Of a stretch of 64,000 nt of DNA, positions 8,941 through 63,760 are shown piece after piece. Below the pieces are notes generated by a model that saw only the letters and a program-made list of their open reading frames with translations, made no database searches and was not told the origin of the DNA. A program made the translations under genes and the position numbers. Source of the stretch: Octopus vulgaris (lineage: Eukaryota); contig OX597823.1 of NCBI GenBank assembly GCA_951406725.2, positions 23,374,001-23,438,000 of the forward strand, written 5' to 3'. The first letter of the stretch is position 1; every line of letters begins with the position of its first letter.

Positions 8941-9114
8941 CTTATAAGAATATTGATTGTGGAAGTCCCAAAAAAACTGACGGAACATCTCTGTCCTACT
9001 CTATCACCAACTACAGATCTAAAGTGACCTATACTTGTAATGATGGAAGAAGATCTTTTAAGTCAGTATGTGGAAAATACAATAAATGGTTACCAGCATT
9101 TACTAGTTGTAAAG
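8941..9114 (+). CDS. Exon: Sushi/CCP domain copy 1
   Basis: tttcag|CT...AAAG|gtaatg, 174 nt; [57 protein letters not shown] (4 Cys + Trp CCP pattern). Not captured in this frame by the ORF track. Confidence 0.88.
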
Positions 9115-12100: not shown

Positions 12101-14628
12101 GTGCACCCTCATCATCATCATCATCATCATTTAGCATCCGCTTTCCATGCTAGCATGGGTTGGACGGTTCAACTGGGGTCTGTGAAGCCAGAAGACTGCA
12201 TCAGGCCCAGTCTGATCTGGCAGTGTTTCTACGGCTGGATGCCCTTCCTAACGCCAACCACTCCGTGAGTGTAGTGGGTGCTTTTTACGAGCCACCCGCA
12301 CAGGTGCCAGATGGAGCTGGCAAATAGCCATGGACGGATGGTGCTTTTTACATGCCACCGGCACGGGGGCCAGGCGAGGCTGGCAACGGCCACGATTGGA
12401 TGGTACTTTTTACGTGCCACCGGCACGGGGGCCAGGCGAGGCTGGCAACGGCCACAAACGGATGGTGCTTTTTACGTGCCACCAGCACGGAGGCCAGTCG
12501 GGGCGGCACTGGCAACGGCCACGATTGGATGGTTCGCTTACTTTTCACCGGCACTGGTATCACAGCTGCAATTTCCATTGATGTTGATCGACTTCGATTT
12601 TGGTTCTGCTTTCTGATATCTGATTTGGTTTGATTTTGATTTTGATTTATACACTAATAAATAAGGTAGGTATTCCTTATCAAGGCACATGGCCAAACAC
12701 TAACAGAAAAAAAAAACAATGTTTTTCTCAATGGCTTTAATCATATATGCAAAATACATAAGGCAGTGAACTGGCAGAATGGTTAGCACAACAGGTGAAA
12801 TGCTTAGTAGTGTTTCATCTACCGCAACATTCTGAGTTTAAATTCCGCCAAGGTCGACTTTACCTTTCATCCTTTTGGGGTCAATAAAATAAGTACCAGT
12901 TGAGTGATCGACTGTCCCCCTCCCCACAAAATCCAGGCTTTGTGCCTATAGTAGAAAGGATTAATTATGTATGTAAAATAAACTGTCTCAGACTGAGAAT
13001 CAAATCCAGAACATTTACTAACTCCTACTTCAAAGTTTAGGCCTTCTGTCTATGTGAGAAATTATTATAGTTGTTGTTATTCTTCATTGATCTAAATTTT
13101 ACTTTAATTCTAGATATTCACAACTATTTTGTGAAAGTACAGAATGCAATTTTGTTTGAACCTGGGAAAAAAATGTGGGTTAATAAAGCTGTAACAGAAG
13201 AAGCTTGTGCGAAAAAGTGTTTGTCTGATGTCAAGTGTTTATCATTTGAAATGACTAAAAAAGGTAAAAGATGTTACTTATCAAGGAAAACTGCAGTTTA
13301 CTCCAATAAAATGAGACACGACAAAGACAGAGATTACTACCAACTAGTAAAACGTAATTATTCTTTGTATTTTATAATTGGATTCTCTTTTTCTTTTTTT
13401 CTGATGCTTCTAATTCACTATTCTGCAATCCATCACTGAGTTTTGCCTTTTATCCAGATTTATGCTTGTTAGAACTGGTTTCACCATGATTTTGGAATGT
13501 CAATATGATTTAAGATATCATGCCTCTTAAAACATTAAACAATTTAACAGTTTAAGTCACTGAAATCCCAGCCAACTATGCTCCATCAAATTGTCCTCTT
13601 TGGAAATCAGATAGGTTATGCAATTTAAATAATTTAAAGATAAATACCTGGGAAAAAAATGAAAAGAGGGGTTGTATCATGAAATACAAGGCATACATAA
13701 TGCATATGAACACATATATACAAACTAGAATAGTTCTGAATTTGTACTATTGCCATGATAATCTAAACAACAGGGTACAATTTAATACCATAAAGAAAAA
13801 AATTCCCTCATCACTAAATGTGACTAAAGGTGATGTGATACCTACATTGCTAGAAATAGGAATAAAATACTCCTGGTGCTGTATACACTCTTTCATGCAT
13901 CTCAACCACTGCAGGCCCCTCCACATCTCTCATATGCCTGTCTGTACACTTTCCATGCCCTCACATATCTACTTTACCCACATCCTAACCACTCCAATTT
14001 CTCTCACCGTCACTTGCTATAGTCAAATCTTCCCAATCTCTAAACATACCCACTTAAACTCTTATCGAACATCTCCCTCTATTCCCTCTGTACTACTTAT
14101 ATTCCCCCACCCCACAGTTCCAATGTCATCTATTTCTATCACTCTCTCTCTCTCTCACTCTGACTGTCTCTCTATCTTTCTCCCTAGCACTCTCCCACTT
14201 TTTGTCTCCTTCCTTGTACTTCTGGGTAGCCAAATATCTCCTCTATTGTAAGACAATTATCTCAGTCCTTCTATAATGCTCTAACCACTTGCCAGGCACA
14301 CAACCACTTTTCTTGGTTCCATTCCCTATCTCAACTAAGTGGTCTTTGTCTTGCAAGCTTCTTGGTAATCCGCTGGTGCTGGTGTCTTGTCTTGTAAAAA
14401 AAAAAAGTACCCAGTACACTCTGTAAAGTGGTTGGTGCTAGGAAGGGCATCCAGCCAGAGAAACTATGTGAAAACAGACAATTGGAGTCTGGTTCAACCT
14501 TCTGGCTTTCCAGCTTCTGTGAAAACGTCCTATCCATGCCAACATGGAAAACAGACATTAAATGATGACAATAATGATAATGATGATATCTATATATATA
14601 TAAAAAACATACATACACACATACACAT

Positions 14629-14688
<60 letters not shown>

Positions 14689-14713
14689 ATACATACATAC
14701 ATACATACATACA

Positions 14714-14747
<34 letters not shown>

Positions 14748-16217
14748 CACACACACACATATATATATGCATATGTATGTATATGTGTGTGTGTGTGCTT
14801 GTCCCCACCACTATTTGACAACCAGTTTTGGTTCGTTTACATCCCTGTAACTTATTGGTTCAGCAAACAGAAACTGATAGAATAAGGTTTAAAAGATAAG
14901 TACTGTGTTGATTCATTCGACTAAACCCTCCCAGCTGGTGCTCCAGCATGGATGCAGTCTATGATTGAAACAAATAAATAAATGATATAAATGTATTAAT
15001 AGGAAAAGTAGAAGAGTTAAAAACCTGACATAAGCACAAACAGAAATATTTTGAAGAATGTGTAGGAATCAGTATGGTATGCAAGAAGAGGAAGATGCTA
15101 TGAAAAGGTAGAAGTAATCTGCTTTAATGAAGACGAGGTTATAAAAATGTCTAGAAGACAGGAGGCCAGGTGTTACTCTTATCAGAGCACAGAACGCTAG
15201 AAAGCTTTCTATCCTTTTGTAAAATGAATTAAAACCCCTCTGCTGACTACATCACAAACACAACATCAAAATCTCAAACACCAAAACAATAGTGTACAAG
15301 TGTGTATCACTGAGAAACTTACATGTGTGGAAATGGCCACACATATCCAAGTGAAGAAGTGCTTGTGTGAAATATAGGTAGATACAGACTTCATTACTAT
15401 AGGCCATCGATTCAAACACTTGAGAACCTTCTACTCACAACAGAAAGTGAAAGTAGGGACACCCTCACCTAAATTCTTCTGACTCCACAAATCCAATAGC
15501 AATGGCAACAAAAGCAACAAAGTCCCTCAATCTCAACGCATCACCATATGACATACCTCTCACTACTCAGATCATTCAGACATGTTTTGTAATGAGAGCA
15601 AGTAGTGCAAAAAGGGGAAAACTGTTCCAATAAGAGAACAGAGTAAAAGGAAAAGGCACAAAACAAATCTAACATCACAAAAAAAAAGAGACTTAAAAGT
15701 GCAACACCAGTGCTATATTCTCCTTCATTACTACCATCAGAACTGATAGAGACAAAATTTACAATCCAACAACCACTCAAAAAAAAAAAAAAACTAAATC
15801 TACACACAAACCAACATCATGTGTTCACAAACACAGATAAAAACAAAAAGAATTGATGAAAGGCTTACATCAACACCCAAACATTACACAAAACTTACCC
15901 ACAATAATGAATAGCATGCCAACATATATGAAAAGCATAAAAACAACACAAAACATTTGTAACCTTTTAAAAAGTAAATACCATAATGGAGTAGAAGACT
16001 TTGCAGGGAATATTAACAAAAGACTATTCAAAAAACTACCCATGGAAACAACACATCAAAGTAGAGAGACAGAACACCTATTGCCTCTACAGAAATAAGG
16101 TTAAGTAGGTATTTCATCCCTTTGGGGTTGATAAATTAAGTACCTGTTGAGTACTGGGGTCAATGTAATTGACTAGTCCTCTCCCTCCAAATTTCAGGCC
16201 TTGTGCCTTCAGTAGAA

Positions 16218-16265
<48 letters not shown>

Positions 16266-16833: not shown

Positions 16834-16871
<38 letters not shown>

Positions 16872-18224
16872 GAAAGCAGCGCATGCCATCAAAGTGACAC
16901 TAGGGTACAAATATACAAATCCTAGTATACCCATCATGACTAGTTGAGCACTGGGGTCAATGTTATTGACTAGTCCTCTCCCTCCAAATTTCAGGCCTTG
17001 TGCCTTTAGTAGAAATTATTATTATTATTATTATTATTTTTGTATTTTTTTTAAAGATATTTTCAAAATAGTAGATAACTGATATTTTAAAATTAAACAC
17101 CAGTTATCCATCTGGTACATGATTTTATAAATATATTATAAAAACACAGTCCCTCTACAAAATTATATTTCATCAGACACACTTCATAGAATTCAAGTGA
17201 ATTCCAGAACATCATAAAGATGTACTCGAAGCCTTGCCTAATAGTTATGATGTAGATAATCCATTTGTACATCTCTCTCCTCATACTTTGCTTTTGTTTA
17301 ACATTGAATAGCTGTAACAATACTTGACATGTTGATTGGTTGGCTGATATCCATTTAAGTGAGTTTTGACCCTACAAAGGGACACCATCGGAGGAGAGTT
17401 GATCTAATGGAATATCTGTAATTTAAATATTGAAACAATGTTTCAATTTCCAATATGTTCTACAACTCACAGGAATGCCAACTAGATTTTCATGTTGTGG
17501 ATCAAATATTTGTTAATGATAAATATCCTATTAACAAAATTATGTGCTACATGCTTTATGATATTTAATCTATTGTTTGGTGTGTGTGTGTGTCTGTCTG
17601 TTTGTGTGTGTTTGAGTATACAATTTATTTCCCGTTTTCTTTTTTTTCCAGCCACTGATCATGTTTTTCAATTAAAAAAAGTTACCATAAGGGGGTATGA
17701 TAATATTGGACGGCTTAAAAACATAGACCTAATGCAGTGTCATCAAGCATGTCATGCATACTCAGGATGTTCATCTTATGAGTACAGTGAGACAACTAAG
17801 CAATGCGATCTGAGTAATGTGACTCACCTGACTCAAAAACTTGAACCCAGCAGTAAAGGTTGGGATATTTACATATTTAATCCAGGTCAGTAGGTTTCAT
17901 TTTACTAATTTTGTGTGTATCAGTGCATTTACGTGTGTGTGTGTTTGTGTGTGTATTTCATCATCATCATCATCATCATCTTTTAACGTCCGTTTTCTAT
18001 GCTAGCATGGGTTGGATGGTTTGACCAGGATCTGGGAAGCCAGAAGGCTGCTCCAGTCTCCAGTCTGATCTGGCAGAGTTTCTACAGCTGGATGCTCTTC
18101 CTAACGCGAACTACTTTTTACTCTCACGGAGTGGTTGGCATTAGGAAGGGCATCCAGCTGTAGAAACACTGTCAGATCAGACTAGCATGGAAAATGGATG
18201 TTAAACGATGATGATGATGATGAA

Positions 18225-18288
<64 letters not shown>

Positions 18289-20145: not shown

Positions 20146-20190
<45 letters not shown>

Positions 20191-20226
20191 TACTATTATT
20201 ATTATTATTACTATTATTATCATTAC

Positions 20227-20829: not shown

Positions 20830-23800
20830 TGTTATTATTATTTTGGTTTGGCTCAGGTTTAGTCTTATTCATGGTGGGATTTATGTGGGTAGCAGGTTAC
20901 TACCTGTAACCTTCGGTATCCACAAGTTATCAGCAGTCTTTCAAGTGCTTAGAACCCTCCTGATCATCCTTGTTGTCCCTAAGAGACAAATTTTCTGTAG
21001 AAGCTCTACTGGGCATTCTATTTCAATCTCCTTCAGCTATTTATCTATATCTTTGCTTACTGTTCCCAGTTCACCAATTATAGGTATATATTTACTGTTC
21101 TCATCCTCCAAATTCTTCCTATTTCAAATTGTAAGGGACTGTATTTTTCTGTTTTTTGTCCTCTCGCTTTACAATCATGAAATCAAATGAGCATGATTGG
21201 TCGATCAGTAAGCAACTTTGCTTTTCCTTATCTATAATTGTTATTTTTGGTCTATCATTTTCTAATTTCTTGTCCATCTGAATAGGAAAGTCCCACAAAA
21301 TTTTACATTTCTCTAACAGACAAACATGTATGTATGTATGTATGTATGTATGTACGTATGTATGTATGTATGTACGTACGTACGGACGGACGGACGGACG
21401 GACGGATGGACGGACGGATGGACGGATGGATGGATGGACAGATGGATGGATGGGTGGATGGCCGGATCTATGCATGTATGCCTGTATGTATGTATACACA
21501 TATATCTGTATAAACCATATGTTCATGTAGATATATATTTGTATACTTTCATATGCATGAGAGTGAAGCCCTGGTAGAATGATCTAGCAGGAGATAGAGG
21601 ACATGTCTGCACCAGTGCATGTAATGGATAGCTATGAGGTGGGAAACTGTGGATCAATGTGTGTGCACATGCAGTTCTTTGTTGGGAACATGATGTTCTC
21701 GATGGTTTTCAGGGCTCTGGTATTGAAGCTGTTGATGCTCTTTGCCAGAGTTTTCAAGAGGGGCCATGTTTCTGCTTGACAGATGGCGGGATATGACTAA
21801 GGAATATCTTTGGAGGCCTGGAGGATGCAGAGGGGCTGACATGGGACTACCAACAATGGAGAGCACTGGTGGACCTGGTCAGCTCTATGCATGATGATGG
21901 CTTTGGGATCACTAACCTGGGATGACTCCAGACCCATCAAACAAGATCATGAAGCAAGCAAGCGACATATGCACGTATGTATTTGTGTAAATATGTATGT
22001 GCAAATTTCTTAAATTTGTTTCATTCAATATCTTTTATTACAAATTGTCATTATCTCTTCATTTTCATATAAGGCCATTTTTATGAACTTCTATCAATTT
22101 CAGCTTATTTACATATTCACTGTGGAAGTCCAAAATATGTTGAAGGTGCATTGAAGTCCTACACGACCACCAACTACAAATCAGTAGTGGAATATTCTTG
22201 CCCAGGGGGTGAAAAATTTAAAGCAAGATGTGAACAAGGAGGTAAATGGACTCCAGTAATAGCTACTTGTAAAGGTAACATAAATCACATCTTTCTTGTT
22301 GCTACTGTATTGATAACTTTATTTAATTTTTTAATGAAATATTTTAGTCAGAGAAAAAATGGCTGACTCCATGGCAATTTCCACAGTATCTGTGGTTGGT
22401 CGGAGAGAGAGAGGACATTATCCTCAGACCTAAGACCCCTCCAAATGTTTGAAAATGTGGAAGCTTGTCTTCTCTGCCATGATTCCAAATAGTTCCAATC
22501 TACCAGATTTCAACCTTAGTTGTGAAGCAAATGTTTAATCACATAACCAAGACTCCACACAATACCTCATTGTTGTGACATGAACTTATTAATCCCAAGC
22601 TATATTTGACCCATTTCTCTTTATTTCTGACTTAAGTTGTCCCACCCATAATTTGTTTCATCATCCATCTCTCTGTACAATATAATGTACTGAATCCTTC
22701 ATTACTAGATTTTGGCTATCCTCTGAAACAGCTATTTGATGATCCATTGATCTTTTAATCCACTGCCCTTAATTAAAATAATACTGCAAATAATTATAAT
22801 GGTCTCTGATTTTGGCTTATGGCCATCAAATTTTGATGAGAGTGGTTTAGTAAATACCATTGACCCCAGTACTTGACTATTACTTCATGTTTTAGACTGC
22901 TGCTAGGATGATAGATGGAGTTAACCTTGGTTGAATTTGAACTGAAAATAAAAAGAGCCTGAATATATAGTGTAAATAATTTCTTTGAAAACATCAATGA
23001 TTCTTCCACTCAGCCACTTATAATTGTATAATTGATAATAGTAATGATTTTTTTTTATTTGTCTCTAGGACATGATATTAGGCAGATGATACAAAGATAA
23101 GCATAAAATATAATTGTTTATAGAGAATCAAACAAGTAAAAGAAAAATATTAGTTTACATGTATACGTTTAAAAGAAAGATGAGAATGATGATACAGTCT
23201 TCCTAAATATAGAAGGATCTTTATCTAGGGCCAGCTGAAGAACTCCATCATTGAAGATCATCCTTAACTCCAAGGACAAATGTCCACCCCAGTTATACAG
23301 GCCTGCTACCAAAAAATTGTTTCACATATATTGGGTGAAGCTGTTCAACTTTTACCTGCTGATTTCGAAAATTACAAAGAAATTATCCTATCATGTACAG
23401 TTTCTTCCAAAAATTGATCATTGCATTTTACCATTATGCCTGATTTTGACTATTGCCTTTATCATTACTATTGATTGCTATATTTAAATAGACATTAACA
23501 GTATAATAGGTGTAATTTTGTAAAATAAGCATCTAGCAATGTTTAGATTGCTTCAACTACACAGAGAGGTACCTGCATCATGGTAGCTTCAGTTGCCTAC
23601 AAGCAGTGAGGAAAGAAAGACATGCATTACAAGGTCATGTTATTCAAGTATCTTTTTATATTTCAGTTATTTCCTCATGCCTTTTTCAATATACATATGC
23701 TATGGTGCATTGTTTTATTATATCATATATTTTAAAGCATCTTTAATGATATTATGTATATACTTAGATGATAAATCAAATATAAAAACTAGAAAAGCAC

Positions 23801-26800
23801 TCAGAGAGTGTAGACCTCTGCCAAGCAGCTCATTTCCACCCATATACACACATGCTAAAAATCACCCAATTTCCCAAACCAACGCCAGCAAAAACATAAC
23901 CTCATTGGCAAGGTTTAAAAAAAATAACACAGCCATATGAATTTTAAAAAAACCCCTTAAAAACAGGAATCATCTGAAGCAGTTATAATACATCAATGAC
24001 AACAGCAAGCTAGTTTCACCATACAACTAAAAAGAAACAACAATTACCTAAAACTTGAGTGATACACACACAACGCAAGTAAAATTACTAATAGAGAAAC
24101 GAAAATAAACTTTGGAAACAGCAACGCCACCATAGGTTACGTTGAAACAATGAACGTGTTTTCAAGGGAGATAATCAAAGAACGTAACAATACTTCATGT
24201 AAAGTAAATATAACAAATGAAAAATCTTTCAAGAATCCATAAAAATTCCTGGATCACTACCAAATTTTCATCATCTGTTCCTTGTGTCATTACCAACTTT
24301 TTCTGCAAGTTTCATCAAATATTGTTCACAATGTTTTGAGTTATTTTGCACACAGACGGAAAACCAATACTGATGAAAACATGACCTTCCTTGGTGGAAT
24401 TAAAAATGTCCCCTTTCCCTTTCCTTACAGACTTCCTCATAATTTGAAGTAAGGATGTGTTCTTGAAGATGTACAGCAATCTTGGATAATTTTTTATTAC
24501 ATTTGTAATGAGTTTATGACTAAAATACATAAAAAAACATTACAAAATTTGTCAAAAATGTTACTATGCTTACATTGGTGTGAAATTAGGAGACCAAGAT
24601 AAGAAGTGGGTTCCTCATAAGGCTTGCTCAATTTGTGTTGAAGAACAAAGACGATGGACAAAAATATACAGGGAAGTCATTTCCTTTTGGGGTTCTAATG
24701 ATATGGAAAGAGCCTAAAAATCAGTGAAGAGTGTTACTTTTTGCTCATGTAAGGTGTAGGAATACAATTTGAAGGGTGAGAAAAACATTGTTTATCCAAA
24801 TCTTCCATCTGTACTGTGACCTGTTGCTTATTGACCAGATGCTTGAGTCTTATCACTACCAGGAAATCTTGAAGACATACGCTTGAGTTATGAGTCAGAA
24901 GATAGAAATAGTAATGATGATGAAAGCTTCAATTGCAGTGAAGGTAAAGAGTCTCAACTATTCAACCAATGTGAGTTAGATAATCTAATCAGGGACTTGG
25001 GGCTCACAAGCTTTTAGGTTCCAGACTTAGATCCAAGAATCTTTTAGCTCCTCACACATAATTCTATTGGTATTATAATTGCGAAAGGGAATTTGTTCCT
25101 TATTTTTCACAAGAAGATGATTTGGTTTATTGTACTGAGCCATCAGGGCTAATAAGAAAATTTGGGATAAATTACAGTCCTGATGAATGAAGACTCTTTA
25201 TTGACTTTTCGAAGAGAAGTATTAAAGCTGTTCTACTACATATGCTTTCATACCTGTTCAACACTCAGTGATCATGAAGGAAGCATATGAAAATTTGGTG
25301 TCACTATTACCCAACAATAAATTTAATGATTACAACTGGATAATTTGTGGTAACTTGAAAATAATTTGCTTGGACAAAAGTTAGGCTACACAAAGCTCCT
25401 TTGTTTCTTGTGTAAATTGGACAGTAGAAGTAGGAACCTCCATAAGTCTAAAAAAGAATGACCAGCTTGTATATGCTTAGACTAGGAACAAAGAATATCT
25501 TTTGAGAAAATTTGGCTGACCTGAAAAGGGTTCTTTTACCGCCTCTACATGTAAAACTTGGCCTCATGATATAATTCATAAAAGATTTGCTACAGGATGG
25601 AGAGGGCTTTGGGTAGTTGCATAGCAAATTTCCTGTGTTGTCAGATACCAAAGTTGAAGAGGGTGTATTTGTAGGACCAGATATAAGGAAACTTGCCAAG
25701 GATGAAAATTTTTTAAATTCTCTTAGTGATTCTGAAAAGATGCATGAATTAGTTTTAAAGATGTGAAGAAGAACTTCTTGCATAATTACAAGGATCAAAA
25801 CTAAAGAGATACTGTGGGAAGAATGCTGGAAAATTTTTAGGTCTTAGGATGTAAAAGGAACATCAAAATTCATTTCCTATATGCCCATTTTGGATTTCTT
25901 TTGAGAAAATCAGGGGGATCTGAGCAAAGAACAGGGGGAAAAGTTTCATCAAGACATAATGGAAATGGATAGAAGATATCAGGGAATATGGAATGTCAAT
26001 ATGATGGCCGACTACTACTGGATGTTGCATTGTGAATGTCTGTCAAATAATCACAAGTGAAAGAGTTTCAGACATAGTTTCCAAATGAAAAAGAAATGAA
26101 AAGAAGGAGTTAACCTTCTAAAGATGATGACTTCTTTTTATTGCTCACTAAAATTATAATGTTGATGAATAAAATTTCTTAGCTTGTTACATTAAATTGT
26201 TGACATCTACTCCAAATTTAAATGAATTCACTAGATGATGATAAAAGTGAAATTAATTTAGTTCACCAAGGTAAAACATTGCAAAATCAGTAAAGCAATG
26301 GGTTATAAGGCCTTGCCACGACAAAACATATTTAGTTACTTTCTTTTACATTCTGGGTGTGCTTAGCTTTTTATTCTTATGAGGTTGATAAACTCTAATC
26401 AAGTCTGAGATGGATTTATTCTTTAGTATTCTTACCGCAGAATGTCTGTAGTTGTATTTAAGCTATCAAAAATTATTATTAATTTTGTTAACGTCAACAG
26501 CAATTATCAACTTTGTTAATGGATTGACCATTTGACATTAGACAAAATGTATTGTGGTATTTGTTCTGGCTCTTTACCTTCTGGTTTCAAATCCTGCTGA
26601 GGTTAACTTTGTCTTTCTTTCTTTGGCTGTCAATGTAAATATATCAATCAAGGGTAGAAACCAATTTAATTGACAAACTCCAACTCAAAGTTTTGGCCTT
26701 CCATGTTAGAAATTATTATTGTGGTGGTTATCATTTTTCATTGGCCTAAATTTTACTTTAATCCTAGATATTGACATCTATTTTGTGAAGATAAAGCAGG

Positions 26801-46300: not shown

Positions 46301-49300
46301 TGAAATCATGTGTTTAAATGCCACTGAAAATCATGTGTTTAAATGCCACTGAAAATCAGAAAATTGTATGAACTTTCATTCAATCTCCAAAGCTTTAAGG
46401 TTGCCTTTCATGACATCCTTAAACCACTTCCTTGGTTTATGCTGAGGCTTTTTCTTGTTGGCCAGCTCCCATTAGCTTGCCTTCTATCTTCTATCCTGAC
46501 AACTTTAGAAGCTTTATCTAAAGATGAACAAGACCAGTAACAGAGTTAAGCTCATGGACCACCGAGTCGGAATAAAAATATTGACATCAGTACCAAGCAG
46601 TGATGAAAAATAAATGAACTGTAAATTAGTTGATACAGCTATTTTTATTCCAACCAGGTGATCCATGAGTGCTACTAAGTTACTGGTGTTGATTGTTTTT
46701 AGATTAAAGCTATGGATTTGAATCTGCCCAGGGTTATCTCACTTTGGTATTTTTGTATTGAGGAAGGTTAAAATGCCAGGAATAGGCAGCTGGGATTCTG
46801 CTAGAGGGAGACACTGGGTAGGTATGGTGTTTTTACACCTTTTGCCATAAGAAAGAATTTTTTCTATTCAGTAACTGAAGTCAATCTGCCTTTAGAAGTT
46901 AAAATATGTCATAAGCATTTAGATTTTTTACAAACAACTTGCAGATGCAAGTACTATTGGATTTTAGCAAGCTCATGTGGTTATGAGGAGTGAATGTGCA
47001 CTGTTTTAGGGCCTTCCTCTCACCGGCATCATTGCACACCAGCCCTCCTTCCCCCTCACTGAAATGAGGCCCTGCTTGCTAGATTAACTGGTTATATATT
47101 TGAACTAACTTAAAATTCATTTCTTCTTCATTACAGCTTGATACTGATACTTTTAAAATCTAAGTACTGGTGTTGTCTGTCTCTTTTCAATATATATTTC
47201 TTTACTACCCACAAGGGGCTAAACACAGAGGGAACAAACAAGGACAGATAAACGGATTAAGTCGATTATATCGACTCCAGTGCGTAACTGGTACTTAATT
47301 TATCGACCCCGAAAGGATGAAAGGCAAAGTCGACCTTGGCGAAATTTGAACCCAGAATGTAACGCCAGACGAAATACGGCTATGCATTTCTCCCGGCATG
47401 CTAACGTTTCTGTCAGCTCGCCGCCTTTTCAATATAGATTAGTTGTAACAATTTCTTTCCTTTAATTACTAGAATGTTCAAAATAGGAAGTTCTCTTTCA
47501 CTCATGTTCATAGAGAATTGGACCAATGATTGCTATTTATCAATTTAAGGAATCTTATAAGTTCTGTTGCGAAAGATAGAGTAAGCACTCAAGAATCTTT
47601 TCTAGTTTTCTTTTAAATGGAATCAGAAATAATGATCCAAAGCAATCATAGAACAGGCATTAATTTTTTCTTTTTACCTTCAAGGAATCGCATTACCAGT
47701 GTATGTATGAATTTATACCTGTGTGCATGTTGCTTCAATCTGTTTCACTAAATATCTTTTATTGTAGCATTATTATCAATTCTTTTTTCTTAACCACCTC
47801 CAAACATACATGTACAACTGATATCAATTTCTGTTACCAATTTCAGCTTATGAAAAAGTTAACTGTGGACCCCCAATGTATGTTGTTGGGGCACTTCAGT
47901 CTTCCAAAACCAGCACCTATAAATCAAAAGTTTACTATACTTGCCTAAACGAAGACAAGTTGATCTCAGTATGTGAAAAGGACAGCAAATGGGTACCGGT
48001 GGCTGGTTGTAAAGGTAAAGTAAATAAACTTTCTCTTGTTGCTTCTAAGTAATATAGTTTTATTTTTTTATGAAATGTCTAAGTCAGAGGAAGCATGGTT
48101 GACTCCATGACAATTTCTACATAGTATTTTTGACTAGTGGGGGGAGAAGCAGTTATTCTCAGACCTGAGACCTCTCCAAATGTTTGCAATAGAGTGAACT
48201 CCAGTAATTCTATCCCGAGGCCAGGTAATGGTATTCTATTGGGTGATGTATTACATCTAACAACAAAGAACTAGAAGAATGGAAGCTTATTCCTTCTGAC
48301 AGGCTTCCATATAGTTTCTATCTTCCAGATTTCGTCCTTAGTTATAAAGCTAAGATTTCATTCAATGCCACATTGTTGTGTAGTGAACTTATTAGACCCA
48401 ATCTATGCTTGACCCATATCTAGGTAGTTTTCCTCTTTATTTCAGACTTGCTCTGTTTCACTCATACTTTATGTCATCATCCAAATCTCTGTATAACGTA
48501 ATGGGCTGAATCCTTCATTACTAGATTTTGGCTAACATCTGAAACAGCCTTTCAATGCATGCACTGAAGTCCCCATTCACTCTTGCCCTTTTTGACATGT
48601 ACACCCAGCTGTCAATAATTTCACTTTGGGACAGTACTGCCATCTCCATCTTCACCGTCTTCACAAGTGAAGTCTAAAGATGCTGAACCAAAGAGGAAAG
48701 TATCTATCACCATATCTTTCAACCTGATCCATGACACAAATTCTTTTGAAAACAGAAGAAAGCTGCATTCTCTTTCCTATTAAAGCAGGGTGTAGGACAA
48801 TCATCATGATGAACTTGGTTGACAACAAGATCCCTCCCTACACAGCAGCGTCTCTTTGACATAACTCTACAGGGTGTCTCAAAATTAAGGCAACCAAGGC
48901 TTTAATAATTATCAATAAATATGATAAGATATGAAAGTTATACATCATTATAAAAGCTTAGTGTGTCTTCTTTTGTTTCAGACTAAATAAATTCAGATTT
49001 ATAAATTAGATAATGGCTATAGACCGAAATACAATCATAATCCTTCACAAAAGAGGTGAAAGTAATAGAGCTATAGCAAAACAGCTTAAAATTAACTGAA
49101 CAACAGTCTGAAAAATTGTCAAGAAATTTCAAGAGACTGTCCAAGCACTGTTCATCCTAGATGTGGCTGAAAAGGAAGTGTGCAGATCCCTCTGCTTATT
49201 AAAATACCAGAGAAAAAATACAGCAAAATCCTTGTCTTGCAACACAAAACTGGCTGCCACAGCAAAAATAAGCCAAACATCGATGTATCAAGTGCTGAAG

Positions 49301-51937: not shown

Positions 51938-54900
51938 TGTTGTTGTTGTTGTTGTTAATCTTCATTAGTCTAAATCTTATTTTAAATGTAGGTGCTCTGG
52001 TCAATTTCGTGAGAGTAAAAAATGGAGCTCTGAATGTAAAAAATAAAAAATTGTGGCATAATAAAAATGGAACAGCAGAAGACTGTGCAAAGAAATGTTG
52101 GTCTGACAAAAGTTGTTTGTCATTTGAAGTGATTAGAAAATCTACAAAATGTTACCTATTAAAAGAAAGTGCACTTTCCACGAGGAGAATGACAACAGAC
52201 ATAAACAGAGATTACTATCAACGAGTAGAACGTAATTATTCTTTATGTTATATAATTGGACTCGCCTTCTTTTTCTGAAATTTGTGATTATATTTATGTA
52301 TCTTAGTAGACAGACAAACACTCTTGTAAAAATATTGACAGGTTTACCTATAAGGACAGATATAGACATGTTCCAGAAAAAGAGGAAGCGATGCTTAGGG
52401 AATTCTCAAACAGCATTTGTTGATTTTGAACAATTTATGTATATTTTCAATTGCACTTTTTCTATGTAAGAATGGCAACACTTGTTTTTGTTAAACCTGA
52501 CTAGAAACAGTAGTAGTAATAACAACATTTGTCTTTTCTGGCATGACTTAGGGCTATTAGAGCACAGTGTCTCACCCACTAGATACAGTTCTTCCTAATT
52601 TGATACACAAAATAACTAAAAAAAAAAAAATATCGTTATATGGAGTCATGTATCACTGATATTTTGGCATGGTTATTAGGGATGGATGCCCTTCCAGCCA
52701 ATATACCACTTAAAGAGAGTACATTTTTCAATGCTACTGGAGTGAGAGAAATTTTCTATTGGGGTTAAAGAATCTTCTCAACATAAAATAAGTTCTCATT
52801 CAGAATAGTTCCATGGTATTTAAGAATAGAACAGTCAACAACTGTATTTATTTTGATCTCAAGAACTTTGTCTTTTATTATCAAAATCCTTCTTTCTTGA
52901 AATCTTGAACTTCAGAGGAAATTCACTAGGTTTAATGAACTCAATATCAAAAAAATCCTGAAAGCTAGGATGTCATTGCTATTGTGATGAATTTTTGGGG
53001 GCCACTTTTGAAGACCTCACTGTAATATTTAACCTGAGCACTTTCAATAACTTCATGCACATTCACAGCTCAGATTTATACAGAGACAAAAGCTTAGCAA
53101 TTTGAAAGAAATGAAGCTAGCTTGATCCACTGGATGTGTAATGTCATAGTGTAAGCGCCCTGAGAGAAATGTTGGAAGCATCAGATGTGGCTTACAAGAG
53201 AGATGACTGTGCTGGTATGGTCATGTACTACAGATAAATGAGGAGAGCTATGTGAAGAAGTGCCACTCCCAAACAGTAGAAGGAACCTGTGGTAGAGGGA
53301 GACCCAGGTAAACATGGGATGAGGTGGTAAAGCATGACCTTCAAAGGTTGGGCCCCACAGAGGCAATGACAAAAGACTGAGACCTCTGGAGATATGCTGT
53401 GTCTGAGAAGACCTGGTAGGTAAAGTGAGATCACAGTTGTAGCCTACACCAGTGTTACATAACCAGCCTATTTAAAAAGTGCCTTTGGATTGTCAGTCGA
53501 CATGCCGTGCTTGAGGAGACCTATTGTATCAAGTACATCAAAATTAAAATCAAAATCAAAATCAAATCAAACTACAATCAAATGGAAATTGTAGTTGTAG
53601 CTGATACTAGTGCCGCCTGACTGGCTTCCCATGCCAGTGGCACATAAAATTACCATTCGAACAGGGTCAATGCCAGCCCCCTTGCACTGAAATTACTAAA
53701 AGCATCTACAATTTATCCTCAAATAGAGATATTTTTGGCAGTATACTTACAATATGTTTGCTAGGATTGGCTCTACTATAAAAAAAAGAATATCCTCCAT
53801 CTCTAAAACTGAAGAAAATTAGAAAAATAAGAAAAGTTTGGTCCAACCCTCTCTTCAATTTAAATGTCTACAACCAGAAAAGTTTTATCCTGTGTTAGAT
53901 TCCATTTCTTGGTCACATGGAAGTATCACAAGCTTATTAATATGCCTAGTGTCAAGGTTTGCTACTCCTGTCTGCTACAATAGGATTACTTTATTCAGTC
54001 TTTTTATCAGACATCCATCTTCAATTACCAAAATCAACCCATCTCTCCACTGAGAAACTTTCTAAGATAGAGGTTTATAGGGCAACTCTCACTCCTCTTG
54101 ATGATTTCCCAATGAATTACATGGGACTCACAGTCAATGACTTCATTGAAAGTTTCACTCAGCATATACACTCATTTTTATGTGAAAACTTCAGGAACAG
54201 GGAAATGATCTGCCCAGCATAATCTTGAGCTTATGCAACACACCACACACACAAACACACACACACACTCTCTCTCACGCACACACACATACACACACAC
54301 ACACGTATACATAATGTAAACAATATCACACATCAATATAAATTAAGATACAAATATAAAAATATATATTTATTTTTTTCTTACATTATTGTTCTAAATT
54401 TCATTCAGTTTGATATTGTAAACAAATTTATTAAGTTTTTTTAGTTTTTCCACAAGTATTTATCCTCATATTTGAGAAATATTTGCTATTAGGAATGCTG
54501 TGAAAAGCAATTGCAGCTAATGAAGTGGTGTATATGTTAAGTCATTGTATGGGGGATAAATCAACAGGAGTAAATCTGCCCTAAGAGTTATATTACCACA
54601 AGCCAGATGTGTTCATTCCTCTCTTTGTAGCCATTTACTCCAGTTGGCAGCAGACTAGGAACATTCCTGGGGAGTGCTGATACAGCTGAGGAGAATCTAA
54701 AAAATGGGAACTGACAGAAGTTTTCAGACCCAGAAATCTGCCCAACATTGAATTAAAGACTTTAGTAAAGGTGCTTGCCAAGGGGCTGGCACATGTTGAT
54801 AGTATAGATGGAGGTAAGCAACTCTGCGTGATCCTTGGCAGATCTATCCATGACAACCTCCACCTCATGTGATAAATCATACACCAGGTCCAAATGAATC

Positions 54901-55996: not shown

Positions 55997-56077
<81 letters not shown>

Positions 56078-56108
56078 CGTTATTATTACGTTATTATTAT
56101 TGTTATTA

Positions 56109-56169
<61 letters not shown>

Positions 56170-56755: not shown

Positions 56756-56822
<67 letters not shown>

Positions 56823-56961
56823 CGATTGTAGTGTTATACTCATTATCTTTTTTTAATAATTTTGATATATATTTAAAATAATATTAATTAATTGATCTTA
56901 TGTATTGGCTTAAGTTTTTCATTGTATGATTTACCCAATAGTGGCCTTTATCTCTAATTTA

Positions 56962-57055
<94 letters not shown>

Positions 57056-57576
57056 TATATGTATGTGTGTGTGTGTGTATATGTGTGAAAGCATGAGTGT
57101 GTGTGCACATGCATGTGTGTGGATGTGTATGAGTATAAAATGTATTTCTTTCCTTTTTGTTTTTCCAGCTGATGCTAACATGATTGCATTAAAAGCAGTA
57201 GGCATACCAGGACAGGATAATATTGGACGGCATGATAGTGTGGACGTAAAGGCATGCAATAAAGCTTGCCTTGAATATACAGGATGTACTTCTTATGAGT
57301 ACAATGATAAATCTCAATACTGTGATTTAAGTAATGTGACTCATGCAACTCATGAACTTAAACCCAACACTGCAGGTTGGGATATTTACATCTTAAATCC
57401 AGGTTAGTAGAATATTTTCTCATTTTATCCTTTGCATGTCTGTTTGTATTTACATACCTGAATATGTATATAATACATATGAATATAATATATATGTATA
57501 TATACATATATGTATGTATATGTGTATATATGTGTGTATGTGTATGTATGTATGAATATATATATATATATGTATA

Positions 57577-57635
<59 letters not shown>

Positions 57636-60600: not shown

Positions 60601-61028
60601 TGAAAGGAAGATTGTGTGATACATGTATAGAGCAGCAATGCCACATGGAAGTGAGACATGGGCCCTGAATGCAGAAGACATGTGAAGGCGAGAGAAATGA
60701 AGCTTATATGCTCTGCTAGATGTGCAATGCCAGTGTGAAAAAGAACACTAGTATTTTGAGGGAAAAGTTGGACATAAGAAAAATCAGCTGAAATATTGAA
60801 GGCTGATCTCAAGACACTGAGCCTTACAAAGGAGATGATTAAGGGTGAATTGCTGTACTCAGAGCAAATTTGATGCCAGTACTGGTGCCACATAAAAAGC
60901 ACCCTGTACACTCTATGGAGTGGTTGGCTTTAGGAAGGGCATCCAGCTGGAGAAACCATGCCAGAACCAGCTCCAGTCAAACCGTCCTATCGAAACAGAA
61001 GTGAAATGATGATAGTGATGAAGAAGAT

Positions 61029-61112
<84 letters not shown>

Positions 61113-63760
61113 TGTGTATGTGTGTGTGAGTGTGTGTGTGTGTGTGTGTATGGCCATTCCTCATTGGAAAGGAGTCCAGTCGATTAGATTGACTCCAGTA
61201 TGCAACTGGTACTTAATTTATCGACCCCAAAAAGATGAAAGGTAAAGTCGACCTCAGTGGAATTTGAACTCAGAATGTAAAGACAGATGAAATACCACTA
61301 AGCATTTCACTTGGCGTGTGAGCGTTTTTGCCAGCTCGCCACCTTTAAATATATTGAGTATATTATGAAAAACCTGTCCTGTTTTGTTTTCCACACTATG
61401 TTTGTTTGTGTGAATGTATTTTTGTGTTTTCTTCAATATGAAGTAGGGCAGCATAAAATTTTAGAGAATATTATGTAGCGTGATTTTGATTGCAGGAAAT
61501 ATCTATATGAGAAAGAGTAGTTGGTATCTTTCATTTAAATAACAAAGAATTTTGTTCATTGAACTATTGAGGATATGAAGATGTGGGAAACATTTGTGTA
61601 TGAAAAATTGACTCTGATATGCTTAAAATATCTAGCAGAGTAGACTAGAATCTAGTTCCTCAATTATTTAACTAAATAATATGGGAATGTTATATGCAAG
61701 GACTAGAAATGCAGTGTCATTATAAAGGGTAATAAAGGCAATGGAAATACATAGAATAAGGAGACTACAAGAGCATCAAATTTTCAAACATAGCCAACTG
61801 CTACAAAGGTAAAGGTGATGCTTTAGACTGGTATAGCAGCACCATAGTCAACTGCTACAAAGGTAAAGGTGACGCTTTAGGTACAAATAATTACAGAGGT
61901 ATCAAGTTGTTGGATCAGGTAATGAAGGTCACGGCAAGATCATAGCCCAACTATTTAGGGAGAGAGTCAGTTTAGACGAGATGCAGTTTGGGTTCATGCC
62001 AGGGAATTGCACCACTAATGCTATATTTCTGGTAAGACAGCTGCAGGAGAAATACCTAACCAAAAATAAACCTCTGTACCTGGCTTTCATTCACATGAAG
62101 AAAGCCTTTGACAGGGTCCCCCCGATCCCTTATCTAGTGGTCAATGAGGAACCTAGGGTTAAGGCAACCTGTGGAAGCTATCCTCATCCATTCTCACCAC
62201 ATCACCACAGCTATCTCTCTTTCACACCACATCTGATACTTCTATGGTCCAACTTTTCTCTCAAGGTACTTAAACTCTGTCGAGTATGCACACTGACATT
62301 ACACATCCAGCGGAGCATACTGGCTTCATTCCTTGCAAGCTTACGCATGTCCTCAGCAGTCACGGTCCATGTTTCACTGCCATATGGTGGTTTAGGGAAC
62401 CTGTGGATGAGGTGGTGAAGCACGACTTTCAAACATTAGGCCTCAGTGAGGCAATGACTATTGACCGAAATATGCTGTGCTTGAGAAGACCAGGCAAGCT
62501 AAGTGAGACCATAACCTGTGGTCTATTCCAGGGGTTTAACCAGCCCTCTTATCTGTACCTTTCCTTCATTAGACACTAAACTTTGCTTGCAAAGACCTGT
62601 TGAGGTAAGTGAAATCGAAATCGAAATCAAATTTGATGACTGGCATCTGTGCTAGTGGAGCACTAAAAGCATCATCCTAGCATGATCGTTGCCAGAGCAG
62701 CTGACTGGCTTCCGTGCCAGTGGCACATAAAAAGCACCATTCAAGCATGATTGTTACCAGCGTCGCCTTACTGGCACTTGTGCCAGTGACATGTGAAAAA
62801 ATATTTGAGCAAGGTCATTGCCAGTGCCGCTGGACTGGCTCCTGTGCAGGTGGCATGTAAAAAACACCATTTGAGCATGGCCGCTGCCAGTACCGCCTGA
62901 CTTGCCCTCGTGCTGGTGGCACGTAAAAGCACCCACTACACTCTCGGAGTGGTTGGCGTTAAGGAAGGGCATCCAGCTGTAGAAACTCTGCCAGATCAGA
63001 TTGGGGCCTGGCGCTGCCATATGGTTCGCCAGTCTTCAGTCAAATCGTCCAACCCATGCCAGCATGGAAAGCGGACATTAAACGATGATGATGATGATGT
63101 TTGAAGTGTATCAAAGACTAGAGAGAGGATTTGCAATCATTCTCTGATGATTATGTAATGTTAGTGTGCATGAATAGAAGAGTAAAAACGAGCAAAGGAA
63201 AAGCTATATATAATAGAATCTAATATGATGTGAAGAAAAAAAAAAACTTCTATGGTTCAGGCATATGATGCATATAGAGAATGATTGCTATATAAGAAAT
63301 TGTCAAGTGATCAAACTGAACAAAATTTGCAGAAAAGGGAGACTGAGGAAGACTCAAGACAAAACAGAGAAGACAAAAGATGATGATAATTGGTGTTATG
63401 TAGAGCTGCAGTAACCTGATGAAATGTACATTAGAAACGGCTGTGTTGAACAATGTGTGTGGGTGTATTTATATCTCTGTGCAACTTGCTTCACTCAATA
63501 AATTTCATTGTAAACCTGTTATGTTCTCATTCTCATCCTCCTCCTAACATACTTTCACCATTAGTGTCAATTTCTGTCATCAATTCCAGCTTATGTGCAA
63601 GTTAAATGTGGACCTCCAAAAGATGTTGCTCTTGGCAAAAAGGCCTACACTACCACCAGATACAAATCTGAGGTGACTTATACTTGTGATGATGGAAATC
63701 AATATAAGTTGACATGTGAAAAGGACAATAAATGGAGTCCCATAACATTTTCTTGCAAAG
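8941..63760 (+). CDS. Partial multi-exon gene (11 exons in window, open at both ends) encoding a repetitive Sushi/CCP + PAN/apple extracellular protein
   Basis: Exons 8941-9114, 13114-13353, 17652-17885, 22104-22274, 26768-27007, 34586-34819, 43501-43671, 47847-48014, 51992-52231, 57169-57402, 63590-63760. All are AG/GT-bounded, phase 1-1 and stop-free, and they join in one frame (759 codons). Confidence 0.88.
9734..10100 (-). mobile_element. RTE LINE 3' end (5'-truncated copy)
   Basis: Very similar to 3460-3800, with a (cat)n tail. Confidence 0.9.
11570..11785 (+). mobile_element. Older RTE 3' end fragment
   Basis: cacactctgtaaagtggttggt...catggaaaatggatgttaaatgatgatg; a similar copy lies at 14370-14588. 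Confidence 0.65.
12109..12648 (-). mobile_element. RTE LINE 3' end with expanded ~60-bp tandem units
   Basis: Matches the 3' UTR of 3460-4070; repeated unit ggtgctttttacgtgccaccggcacgggggccaggcgaggctggcaacggccacga. Confidence 0.9.
12761..12965 (+). mobile_element. tRNA-head SINE
   Basis: tggcagaatgg (A-box-like), gagtttaaattcc (B-box-like), aaggtcgactttacctttcatcc...aagtaccagttg; reverse-strand copies at 47195-47428 and 61178-61345. Confidence 0.75.
13114..13353 (+). CDS. Exon: PAN/apple domain type A copy 1
   Basis: ttctag|AT...AAAC|gtaatt, 240 nt; [25 protein letters not shown] (C-x3-C-x5-C-x11-C PAN core) ...DRDYYQ. Confidence 0.88.
16278..16945. repeat. Interspersed repeat embedded in (TTA)n arrays, with its left part re-duplicated
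   Basis: catgccatcaaagtgacact...cccatcatgacta at ~16297 and ~16882; SINE tail fragments duplicated at 16150-16220 and 16945-17015. Confidence 0.55.
17652..17885 (+). CDS. Exon: PAN/apple domain type B copy 1
   Basis: ttccag|CC...CCAG|gtcagt, 234 nt; [30 protein letters not shown]...GWDIYIFNP. Confidence 0.88.
17945..18235. repeat. Foldback (inverted pair) of RTE 3' ends
   Basis: 18063-18113 is the near-perfect reverse complement of 18130-18182; outer (cat)n/(atg)n and gtgtgtattt/aaatacacac are also mirrored. Confidence 0.85.
18293..18960 (-). mobile_element. Decayed, internally deleted mariner transposon
   Basis: HQDNTQPHT...[16 protein letters not shown]; terminal tattgggtcatcccataaataa. 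Confidence 0.8.
18975..20140 (-). mobile_element. R4/Dong-like non-LTR retrotransposon, 5'/RT fragment
   Basis: [13 protein letters not shown] and [16 protein letters not shown]; abuts the (TTA)n array at 20148. Confidence 0.65.
20265..20716 (-). mobile_element. R4/Dong-like 3' end with restriction-like endonuclease
   Basis: [59 protein letters not shown]; flanked on both sides by (TAA)n. Confidence 0.85.
20845..21315 (-). mobile_element. Second, older R4/Dong-like RLE 3' end
   Basis: [35 protein letters not shown] and [17 protein letters not shown]; ends in (TAA)n. Confidence 0.75.
21325..21500. repeat. Compound tetranucleotide microsatellite (ATGT/ACGT/ACGG/ATGG)n
   Basis: Read directly from the sequence. 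Confidence 0.95.
22104..22274 (+). CDS. Exon: Sushi/CCP domain copy 2
   Basis: tttcag|CT...AAAG|gtaaca, 171 nt; [56 protein letters not shown]. Confidence 0.88.
24520..26100 (+). mobile_element. Decayed DNA transposase, probably CMC/Chapaev3-like
   Basis: Remnants [71 protein letters not shown]...[17 protein letters not shown]; many stops. The family label is from my recall of these motifs. Confidence 0.6.
26768..27007 (+). CDS. Exon: PAN/apple domain type A copy 2
   Basis: tcctag|AT...GATC|gtaatt, 240 nt; [25 protein letters not shown]...DRDYYQ. Confidence 0.88.
27749..27829. repeat. Perfect 30-bp inverted repeat with 21-nt loop
   Basis: tcaccaattgacatccatacaactacgatc (27749-27778) / gatcgtagttgtatggatgtcaattggtga (27800-27829). 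Confidence 0.95.
28229..28615 (-). mobile_element. Non-autonomous Helitron-like element in (TA)n
   Basis: Minus strand ends ...cccgagcaacgccaggcaatactgCTAGt; a similar 3' end is on + at 2118-2146. Confidence 0.6.
28618..28800 (-). mobile_element. Penelope-like terminal fragment with minimal hammerhead variant
   Basis: Minus strand: tcttt CTGTCGA a gagc atag gctc GAAAC GTA aaaga (28709-28746). Confidence 0.6.
29058..29285. mobile_element. piggyBac-like MITE
   Basis: taaCCCttttgttac...gtaataaaaGGGttaa terminal inverted repeats; TTAA on the right, ctaa on the left. Confidence 0.55.
29620..30164. repeat. ~197-bp inverted repeat with ~150-bp spacer
   Basis: 29620-29816 is the reverse complement of 29968-30164, with scattered mismatches. 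Confidence 0.9.
30290..30936 (+). mobile_element. Decayed RTE 3' portion
   Basis: ccaagaagacatgggatgaagtggtgaaacatgatc ([13 protein letters not shown]-like), 3' UTR and (gat)n tail. Confidence 0.75.
31480..31985 (-). mobile_element. Decayed Penelope-like fragment; paralogous piece at ~55500-55985
   Basis: 31715-31840 resembles 55840-55980; minus strand shows YGQT / YTGET-like GIY-YIG remnants. Confidence 0.45.
32221..33220 (-). mobile_element. Mariner transposon, fairly young, 3'-truncated at an (ATC)n tract
   Basis: TIR tacgagggacgttcaataagtaatg; [29 protein letters not shown]. Confidence 0.9.
33340..33785 (-). mobile_element. Old RTE-type 3' UTR with degenerate ~45-bp tandem units
   Basis: tttctacagctggata.. 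followed by repeated catggcactggcaac..gactatgat units. Confidence 0.6.
34586..34819 (+). CDS. Exon: PAN/apple domain type B copy 2
   Basis: ttccag|CC...CCAG|gtcagt, 234 nt; [30 protein letters not shown]...GWDIYILNP. Confidence 0.88.
35010..39545 (+). mobile_element. Helitron complex with decayed PIF1-like helicase (36440-38490)
   Basis: 5' TC plus (gtct)n tract; [61 protein letters not shown]; hairpin+CTAG at ~36075-36105 and terminal CTAG at 39542-39545. Confidence 0.8.
39005..39440 (+). mobile_element. tRNA-head SINE nested in the Helitron, with ~108-bp internal tandem duplication
   Basis: tggcttagtgg A box, gagttcaattcc B box, ccttgagcaagacact; unit gtgtctgtggagtgctc... at 39223 and 39332. 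Confidence 0.75.
39557..40030 (+). mobile_element. Full-length tRNA-head SINE with internal (TA/TG)n
   Basis: tggctgtgtgg A box, gagttcagtcc B box, ccttgggcaagtgtctt, A-rich tail aagtaaaagaataaaagag. Confidence 0.8.
40340..40915 (+). mobile_element. Penelope-like element RT fragment
   Basis: [44 protein letters not shown]; stops present. Confidence 0.85.
41375..41955 (+). mobile_element. Decayed RTE 3' portion
   Basis: Homologous to the RTE C-terminus and 3' UTR; similar copies at 53085-53690 and 58190-58965. Confidence 0.7.
42290..43310 (-). mobile_element. Decayed R4/Dong-like RT C-terminal region
   Basis: [11 protein letters not shown] and [30 protein letters not shown] on the minus strand. 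Confidence 0.6.
43501..43671 (+). CDS. Exon: Sushi/CCP domain copy 3
   Basis: tcccag|GT...AAAG|gtaaag, 171 nt; [56 protein letters not shown]. Confidence 0.88.
45115..46390 (-). mobile_element. Decayed mariner transposon
   Basis: [31 protein letters not shown] (YSPDL-like); tattggattggagcaaaagt terminus. Confidence 0.75.
46511..46710. repeat. Imperfect inverted repeat (MITE-like)
   Basis: gctttatctaaa..accagtaac..ctcatgga..ggaataaaaata mirrored by tatttttattcc..tccatgag..gttactggt..tttagattaaagc. Confidence 0.6.
47847..48014 (+). CDS. Exon: Sushi/CCP domain copy 4
   Basis: tttcag|CT...AAAG|gtaaag, 168 nt; [55 protein letters not shown]. Not captured in this frame by the ORF track. Confidence 0.85.
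48868..50147 (+). mobile_element. Full-length decayed Tc1/mariner element, probably maT (DD37D) type
   Basis: TA TSDs; TIR cagggtgtctcaaaattaaggcaacc / ggttgccttaattttgggacaccctg; [36 protein letters not shown]. Confidence 0.85.
51992..52231 (+). CDS. Exon: PAN/apple domain type A copy 3
   Basis: atgtag|GT...GAAC|gtaatt, 240 nt; [25 protein letters not shown]...NRDYYQ. Confidence 0.88.
55998..56190. repeat. (TTA)n microsatellite
   Basis: Read directly; similar arrays at 16219-16264, 20148-20262, 20716-20842, 33877-33933. Confidence 0.95.
57169..57402 (+). CDS. Exon: PAN/apple domain type B copy 3
   Basis: ttccag|CT...CCAG|gttagt, 234 nt; [30 protein letters not shown]...GWDIYILNP. Confidence 0.88.
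57712..57905 (-). mobile_element. Penelope-like terminal fragment with degenerate hammerhead core
   Basis: Minus strand: gttc CTGAAGA a gagc att gccc GAAAC ctt aaac (57798-57835). Confidence 0.45.
59285..61020 (+). mobile_element. Old decayed RTE LINE (RT region to 3' tail)
   Basis: [21 protein letters not shown]; colinear with the reverse complement of 4071-5900. Confidence 0.85.
61790..63099 (+). mobile_element. Rearranged RTE copy with internal deletion and inversion
   Basis: + strand RT piece 61790-62158 ([15 protein letters not shown]); - strand piece 62177-62384 ([27 protein letters not shown]); + strand 3' end 62388-63099 with (atg)n tail. Confidence 0.85.
63590..63760 (+). CDS. Exon: Sushi/CCP domain copy 5
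   Basis: ttccag|CT...AAAG|gtaacg, 171 nt; [56 protein letters not shown]. Confidence 0.88.

Follow-up and report, generated by a model that had tools for sequence, protein, structure and literature searches.

Octopus vulgaris carries on C10 a real, conserved and apparently unrecognised giant gene, the giant form of a small, uncharacterised coleoid gland-protein family. The full reading proposed here, which we hold at about an even chance, is that the animal secretes a 2.75-MDa, lectin-like filament roughly 1.1 micrometres long, conserved and amplified 105-fold from a small venom-gland protein, the length of which may be tuned by exon skipping. The gene has escaped recognition because annotation fragments it. 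That the whole locus is one gene is very probable, and that a long isoform (more than half-length) is really made is rather likely; a single secreted giant, with one frame, one ~73-kb mRNA and a 24,352-residue filament predicted to cross-link glycans or polyanions, is favoured a little less strongly.

The exon array on C10

The window (the whole 64,000-nt stretch analysed, C10:23,374,001-23,438,000) was initially annotated as holding eleven stop-free, one-domain exons in the order S-A-B-S-A-B-S-S-A-B-S, where S, A and B denote the Sushi, PAN-A and PAN-B classes. All eleven are present (Table 1), bounded by AG acceptors and GT donors in phase 1-1, with uniform lengths in all three PAN-A and all three PAN-B exons, and they sum to 2277 nt, the 759 codons of the spliced translation proposed. 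All six PAN exons pass the Pfam PAN_1 cut-off (E 4e-8 to 9e-11), and the Sushi calls are upheld by Pfam for three of five exons, the other two falling below the cut-off (19.7 and 16.4 against 20.7 bits). An unnamed ORF of one exon, taken from a public sequencing run, best matches the PAN-A exon of cassette 3 (79%).

The window represents domains 3-13 of 343, predicted residues 187-945, or about 3% of the gene. The same exon classes continue upstream and downstream on C10, as had been anticipated, and the genome bears out the view of a lineage-specific, long, beads-on-a-string extracellular protein of symmetric one-domain exons. A long chain was thus correctly foreseen, with its scale underestimated 30-fold. 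The cassette register had been read as Sushi-PAN-PAN, and needs correction: both a small paralog and the first cassette of the giant gene run PAN-PAN-Sushi instead.

Table 1. Exons of the giant gene in locus order; plain positions are those of the window, and C10 positions are given for exons outside it.
Feature	Cassette	Position	Strand	Length	Remarks
Signal-like first exon		C10:23362495-23362549	+		11.5 kb before window; maps to GON-Abd-1 terminus
Linker exon		C10:23363457-23363486	+	30 nt	Homology to small gene
PAN-A exon	1	C10:23364742 (start)	+		Upstream of window
PAN-B exon	1	C10:23370575 (start)	+		Upstream of window
Sushi exon	1	8941..9114	+	174 nt	Predicted residues 187-244
PAN-A exon	2	13114..13353	+	240 nt	Pfam PAN_1
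PAN-B exon	2	17652..17885	+	234 nt	Pfam PAN_1
Sushi exon	2	22104..22274	+	171 nt	
PAN-A exon	3	26768..27007	+	240 nt	Pfam PAN_1
PAN-B exon	3	34586..34819	+	234 nt	Pfam PAN_1
Sushi exon, first of two	3	43501..43671	+	171 nt	
Sushi exon, second of two	3	47847..48014	+	168 nt	
PAN-A exon	4	51992..52231	+	240 nt	Pfam PAN_1
PAN-B exon	4	57169..57402	+	234 nt	Pfam PAN_1
Sushi exon	4	63590..63760	+	171 nt	Predicted residues 889-945
330 further domain exons		C10:23442940-24983168	+		Downstream of window
Four GON exons		C10:24990060-25003050	+		End in stop, AATAAA 42 nt later

A 1.864-Mb region of C10 around the window, free of N, was taken for the census. With a PAN-A exon as query, 106 of 150 scored candidates matched; every match lies on the + strand of C10 at 23.27-24.97 Mb and is free of stops. 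A PAN-B exon gave 106 in the same span together with 10 weaker matches on C13, C17 and C18. Profile searches located 349 places, of which three belong to a small gene upstream and 346 to the main span; from the latter we left out three, namely one weak Sushi-like hit whose donor is GC and two partial copies that lack splice sites. The 343 exons kept, 105 PAN-A, 105 PAN-B and 133 Sushi, extend gap-free over 1.62 Mb. All are stop-free, carry four to five cysteines (exactly four in 340) and have AG/GT ends in phase 1-1, a fit that is partly by construction, because phase-1 AG..GT boundaries were sought near the profile ends and those of one divergent PAN-B exon were set by eye.

The exons form 105 cassettes: 73 ABS, 27 ABSS, 2 ABSSS and 3 AB. 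Donors are class-specific, with GTAATT following 96 of 105 PAN-A and GTCAGT 84 of 105 PAN-B exons. Four Cys columns are invariant across the 105 PAN-A and 105 PAN-B exons, as in the PAN/apple domain (PF00024), and four Cys and a Trp across the 133 Sushi exons, as in Sushi/CCP (PF00084). Deeper profiles and a profile-free scan of the 1.64-Mb span revealed no missed exon and no fourth exon class; the latter scan, for Cys-rich phase-1 exons, returned seven on the coding strand (none domain-like) and five on the opposite strand, against the 343 classed. The three-class array is not a product of chance.

Several local features accompany the array. One PAN-B exon that appeared broken proved to be an intact, divergent exon of 201 nt (C10:24093506-24093706) with an acidic start, its phase and four Cys kept; cassettes about 38-58 are among the most diverged. 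Partial PAN-A and PAN-B pseudo-exons without splice sites stand beside intact copies at C10:24195914 and 24207895, likely as decayed by-products of local duplication. On the minus strand at window positions 4074-7307 lies an intact LINE-type ORF of 1,078 codons with a YADD motif, which we take to be the reverse transcriptase motif of the RTE class. The element was likely active recently, because a copy 97.8% identical over 3.7 kb sits in another intron of the locus, at C10:23,617,956.

A small neighbour and the ends of the gene

Adjoining the giant gene, at C10:23,269,851-23,294,199, is a small paralog of 465 aa with the architecture SP-PAN-PAN-Sushi-GON, the ortholog of GON-Abd-1 (UniProt R4G2C1, Abdopus aculeatus). 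The two octopus genes share 73-83% DNA identity in their signal, linker and GON exons, and the giant gene displays the full GON-Abd-1 series of signal, PAN-A, PAN-B, Sushi and GON with homologous terminal exons. The initial annotation had recognised this architecture from no named gene, but it has named small relatives in GON-Abd-1 and its squid counterpart GON-SepT-1 (R4G2C9, Sepioteuthis australis). A homolog search over 312 candidates yielded six, namely Octopus bimaculoides fragments and GON-Abd-1 itself. Both named proteins reportedly come from venom glands, as Ruder et al. are said to have described in 2013, and no function is on record for either in accessible sources.

The one-cassette gene is old in coleoids, because GON-SepT-1 has the small architecture (41% identity), and among the best 150 of 295 matches in a 1.84-billion library (49 mapped, 17 looked up) multi-cassette forms occurred under Octopus names only. 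Together these observations suggest that the giant most likely arose by tandem duplication, followed by a 105-fold amplification of its cassette. A squid query for longer GON relatives, limited to 2,255 aa and hence weak evidence on squid giants, gave one among 316 candidates, a turtle ADAMTS20. The ESM Atlas (best 0.87) offered leads only: mollusc GON+PAN and PAN+Sushi clusters and cnidarian PAN+COLFI clusters.

Within the O. vulgaris genome the pair of PAN-A and PAN-B exons is a mobile unit, which heads two VWD (mucin/zonadhesin-type) genes on C18. These are near-identical tandem genes at 43.14 and 43.22 Mb in which the pair is followed by VWD exons, and they match a 'zonadhesin-like' salivary transcript (PMC7693380 Table S3; one peptide only). 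On C13 there is a four-PAN gene resembling Argonauta P0030, plus other A-B pairs, and on C17 PAN-B-type exons face each other. Eleven tandem VWD domains spaced 6-13 kb apart on the + strand of C3 (25.31-25.41 Mb) are possibly another long modular secreted gene.

At the ends of the giant gene lie an N-terminal signal-like exon and a C-terminal GON domain. The signal, the linker, the first GON exon and the last exon each occur exactly twice in 1.86 Mb at protein and DNA level, once per gene, and protein and DNA searches, which could not detect a non-homologous internal promoter or terminal exon, found no second copy of any of them inside the array. Two weak hits there (E 0.002) resemble the signal exon but do not represent one. 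Genome-wide, GON gave five matches, two in the C10 region and three on C1. Joined together, the 349 coding exons (73,059 nt) form a single frame of 24,352 aa with its sole stop at codon 24,353. The predicted product has a mass of 2.75 MDa, a pI of 8.9, 1,390 Cys and 272 N-glycan sequons; its signal peptide is modest (Kyte-Doolittle 1.49) and assigned by homology, and no membrane span was detected, with no 19-residue window exceeding a Kyte-Doolittle value of 1.6.

Selection and conservation between species

If decay were neutral, 0.05 substitutions per site would spare frame and splice sites in 45% of exons, and in all 343 together with a probability of 1e-119, whereas the nearest duplicate exons have already reached a dS of 0.24-0.35. 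The array is real and under selection. Nearest pairs have a dN/dS of 0.47-0.63, and pairs at a fixed lag of four one of 0.69-0.78; together with the invariant Cys, these values mean that the core is fixed while surfaces drift or diversify, and such loosely constrained or diversifying surfaces also fit a recognition repertoire. Mean identity between cassettes is 46-58%, with peaks at lags of 4, 8 and 12 that define a four-cassette super-repeat.

Exon order recurs in two further octopuses. In O. bimaculoides, six models with 82-87% identity account for 87 of the 343 exons, 80 of their 81 junctions being consecutive, and in O. sinensis three models cover 50 exons with 47 of 47 junctions consecutive; the chaining of models to exons favours colinearity, unconstrained best hits agreeing for most, and ab initio prediction may lie behind the consecutive junctions of database models. 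The O. bimaculoides model P0002 jumps 18 exons at array exons 298-317, either a lineage-specific block duplication or a model gap.

Alternative readings of the locus

If the long transcript were not the main product, the array might serve for cassette choice, in which one promoter and one GON tail serve every mRNA while skipping retains only one or a few cassettes, so that, as with Dscam or the clustered protocadherins, many small recognition proteins of the form SP-PAN-PAN-Sushi-GON result. We consider this unlikely. All exons are in phase 1-1, and a stop would be created in only 53 of 58,653 possible forward skips; the small relative carries exactly one cassette; and the divergence and dN/dS of the cassettes would suit such a repertoire. 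Variable exons of Dscam are, however, grouped by type, whereas those of the octopus gene are interleaved A-B-S, and no first-exon copy accompanies each cassette, unlike in protocadherins. Neither a Dscam-type block arrangement nor docking/selector complementarity was found, the latter by a 10-mer test only, in which the best complement to the first, second or last intron occurs in no more than 26 of 133 or 21 of 105 flanks. Splice-site strength is also even along the gene, and the double-Sushi positions and the exon order are kept across species where models exist.

Public annotations divide the locus into several shorter genes or transcription units, with models of 279-4,470 aa under separate locus names in O. 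vulgaris, O. sinensis and O. bimaculoides. That this division is correct is improbable, since the ends of the models vary by species and lie mostly inside a domain exon or in unrelated residues, neither an internal copy of the signal, linker, GON or last exon nor a fourth exon class was found, and no gap of intergenic size interrupts the array, the largest intron being 19 kb and the median 4 kb.

It is quite improbable that a long chain is made only as a polyprotein and cut into short lectin-like units after secretion. A lysine content of 14% supplies many trypsin-type sites, and the listed salivary enzymes of cephalopods include S1 peptidases (PMC5554399), but only three furin-type sites occur in 24,352 aa, and across the short linkers no cleavage motif is evident in alignments.

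A venom metalloprotease or toxin, as suggested by the label 'ADAMTS20-like', by the GON domain common to ADAMTS9/20 and by the paralog's place in the posterior salivary gland proteome, is very improbable: protease, prodomain, disintegrin and TSP1 domains are all missing from Pfam scans of three fragments and the paralog, none of the 349 exons is left without an assignment, and a single HExxH occurs in the whole product. A false tandem expansion in the assembly or a decayed pseudogene array can hardly be entertained, despite three exon pairs per class that are at least 95% identical, given that the sequence contains no N, that none of the exon-bearing blocks among the 25 longest duplicated ones (72 in all) exceeds 94% identity or 3.1 kb, that the same order in independent assemblies and the cross-species colinearity already contradict it, that a stretch in mid-array, with its introns, is covered in 28 of 30 bins by one sequencing run, and that no exon along the path is broken.

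Database models and expression data

Three models labelled O. vulgaris match the locus at ~100% over 137 of the 343 exons, with some exons skipped, and are named 'ADAMTS20-like', 'vWA/EGF/pentraxin-like' and hypothetical; the first of these labels is attached to the 3' part of the locus in database models, where a protease domain is absent. In three species NCBI annotates the locus as several genes, and none of the 12 mapped database models covers the window. No description of the giant gene was found in a literature search of papers outside subscription. GON did not turn up in the main text of four cephalopod gland papers, and term look-ups in PMC12607849 and in the main text of PMC7693380 gave no matches.

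For the small paralog, a contig from a presumed-RNA run carries linker, PAN-A and PAN-B joined intron-free, and an O. vulgaris proteome of the posterior salivary gland lists 18 of its peptides at 43% coverage (PMC7693380 Tables S1, S5). For the giant gene, no exon-joining contig occurred among the matches listed for a 2.15-kb mid-array stretch with three exons in three presumed-RNA runs, a negative that is given no weight here; for a PAN-A exon of the window no RNA run was listed, the share of its 16 words present in one presumed-RNA run being 0.44. Accession and motif searches did not find it in the partial file of the salivary gland supplement (PMC7693380), where identifiers may differ, and no match was obtained in the supplements on skin mucus (PMC10138644) and ink (PMC10142993), where identifiers may differ and sequences may be absent. 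The single mRNA, its splicing and its protein are predictions from genome sequence.

Proposed product and mechanism

The preferred reading of a single secreted giant would work as follows. The 349 exons are likely spliced into a single ~73-kb mRNA encoding signal-(PAN-A, PAN-B, Sushi x0-3)x105-GON, in which each domain exon would fold as one disulfide-bonded bead. The product would be a secreted filament with no anchor, roughly 1.1 micrometres in length (about 1.05-1.2 on assumed domain sizes), along which the 210 PAN domains may provide weak binding sites acting by avidity as a tether or gel-former, with the Sushi domains as spacers between PAN pairs. In a gland secretion or in extracellular matrix, the filament would cross-link polymers that bear sugars or negative charge, so that acidic glycoproteins or polysaccharides might be turned into a gel, coat or adhesive. 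Provided that the long isoform is made, such cross-linking of glycans or polyanions seems moderately likely.

The avidity model is proposed because PAN-B resembles parasite glycan-binding apples and PAN-A has a net charge of +7. Mean net charges are +7.4 for PAN-A, +2.7 for Sushi and -0.6 for PAN-B, which carries 1.3 N-glycan sequons on average; the net charge is positive in 99 of 105 cassettes, and linkers between domains are of a few residues. The best solved relatives of the PAN-B profile are Toxoplasma MIC4 and Sarcocystis SML-2 (E 1e-8 to 4e-4), the structure of the latter being titled a lectin with galactose complex. PAN-A is weakly similar to MIC4, SML-2 and the N domain of HGF, which binds heparin.

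An AlphaFold model of a 1,037-aa ortholog fragment contains separate apple and CCP domains (mean pLDDT 67, pTM 0.31), the Sushi beta strands in models reaching a pLDDT of about 55-80. The folds match factor XI/kallikrein apples, SML-2, MIC4, CR1 and factor H, with 10-25% identity for the apples. GON was not folded reliably in two models (pLDDT mostly below 50), and its first 55 residues match collagen C-propeptides (E 1e-5), a likeness that hints at chain joining. GON might join chains or aid ER export, the domain being described as supporting ER-to-Golgi transport (PMC3338439).

If the preferred reading holds, the product would exceed Dumpy, and so be the longest secreted animal protein known to us, and its export would pose a secretion problem of about 690 disulfides and 272 N-glycan sites per chain. 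Symmetric exons may let cells tune both filament length and binding repertoire by skipping. The giant may have a structural role in an octopus secretion or matrix, and may yield a principle for bio-adhesives or gels. The locus would also record the path from a 465-aa relative to a giant through duplication of symmetric exons and a four-cassette super-repeat; that relative still adjoins it, and the growth of titin-like genes thereby becomes directly testable. At a practical level, octopus annotations can break up a 1.6-Mb gene and name it a protease.

Comparison with known systems

Proteins of more than 20,000 residues make up a very short list, to which the octopus giant, if real as a protein, would add an extracellular entry with a module set new there. 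PKZILLA-1 is a larger, intracellular algal enzyme. Titin is built of super-repeats of domains, and resembles the giant in size class and in this higher-order arrangement; it is intracellular and composed of Ig/Fn3 domains, whereas the octopus protein is disulfide-rich with a signal-like start, and no homology was seen. Titin comprises 27,000-33,000 aa and 364 exons (PMC12580133). Drosophila Dumpy is membrane-anchored, with some isoforms as long as 23,000 aa (2.5 MDa; PMC8520396), and has 78 coding exons (PMC2930355). Dumpy is likewise a giant extracellular chain of small Cys-rich modules, again with no homology seen; it is made of EGF/DPY modules, whereas the octopus giant has PAN/Sushi modules, is unanchored, is encoded by 349 mostly one-domain exons and is about 1,350 residues longer.

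At the level of modules, the PAN/apple fold and its four-Cys core are shared with MIC4, SML-2, the apples of factor XI/prekallikrein and the HGF N domain. Apple proteins such as MIC4, SML-2 and factor XI have few apples each, against the 210 that alternate with CCP in the giant. SVEP1/polydom, CR1 and factor H share the CCP modules, and two database fragments are labelled SVEP1-like; the vWA, EGF and pentraxin domains of SVEP1 are nevertheless absent (no fourth exon class, and Pfam of the fragments), and the CCPs stand as singles, pairs or triples between PAN pairs, unlike the CCP arrays of CR1, factor H and SVEP1. The VWD domains and PTS-rich repeats of gel-forming mucins and zonadhesin are lacking, with 0 of 92 VWD matches in C10:23.2-25.0 Mb and a Pro content of 3.9%.

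ADAMTS9/20 and GON-1 share the C-terminal GON domain (Pfam E 6e-33), but the protease and TSP1 domains of ADAMTS9/20 are missing from the giant, and the genome's other GON matches are those on C1. The closest likeness in modules and order (signal, PAN-A, PAN-B, Sushi, GON) is to GON-Abd-1 and GON-SepT-1, which contain one cassette in 451-465 aa where the giant has 105 cassettes in 24,352 aa.
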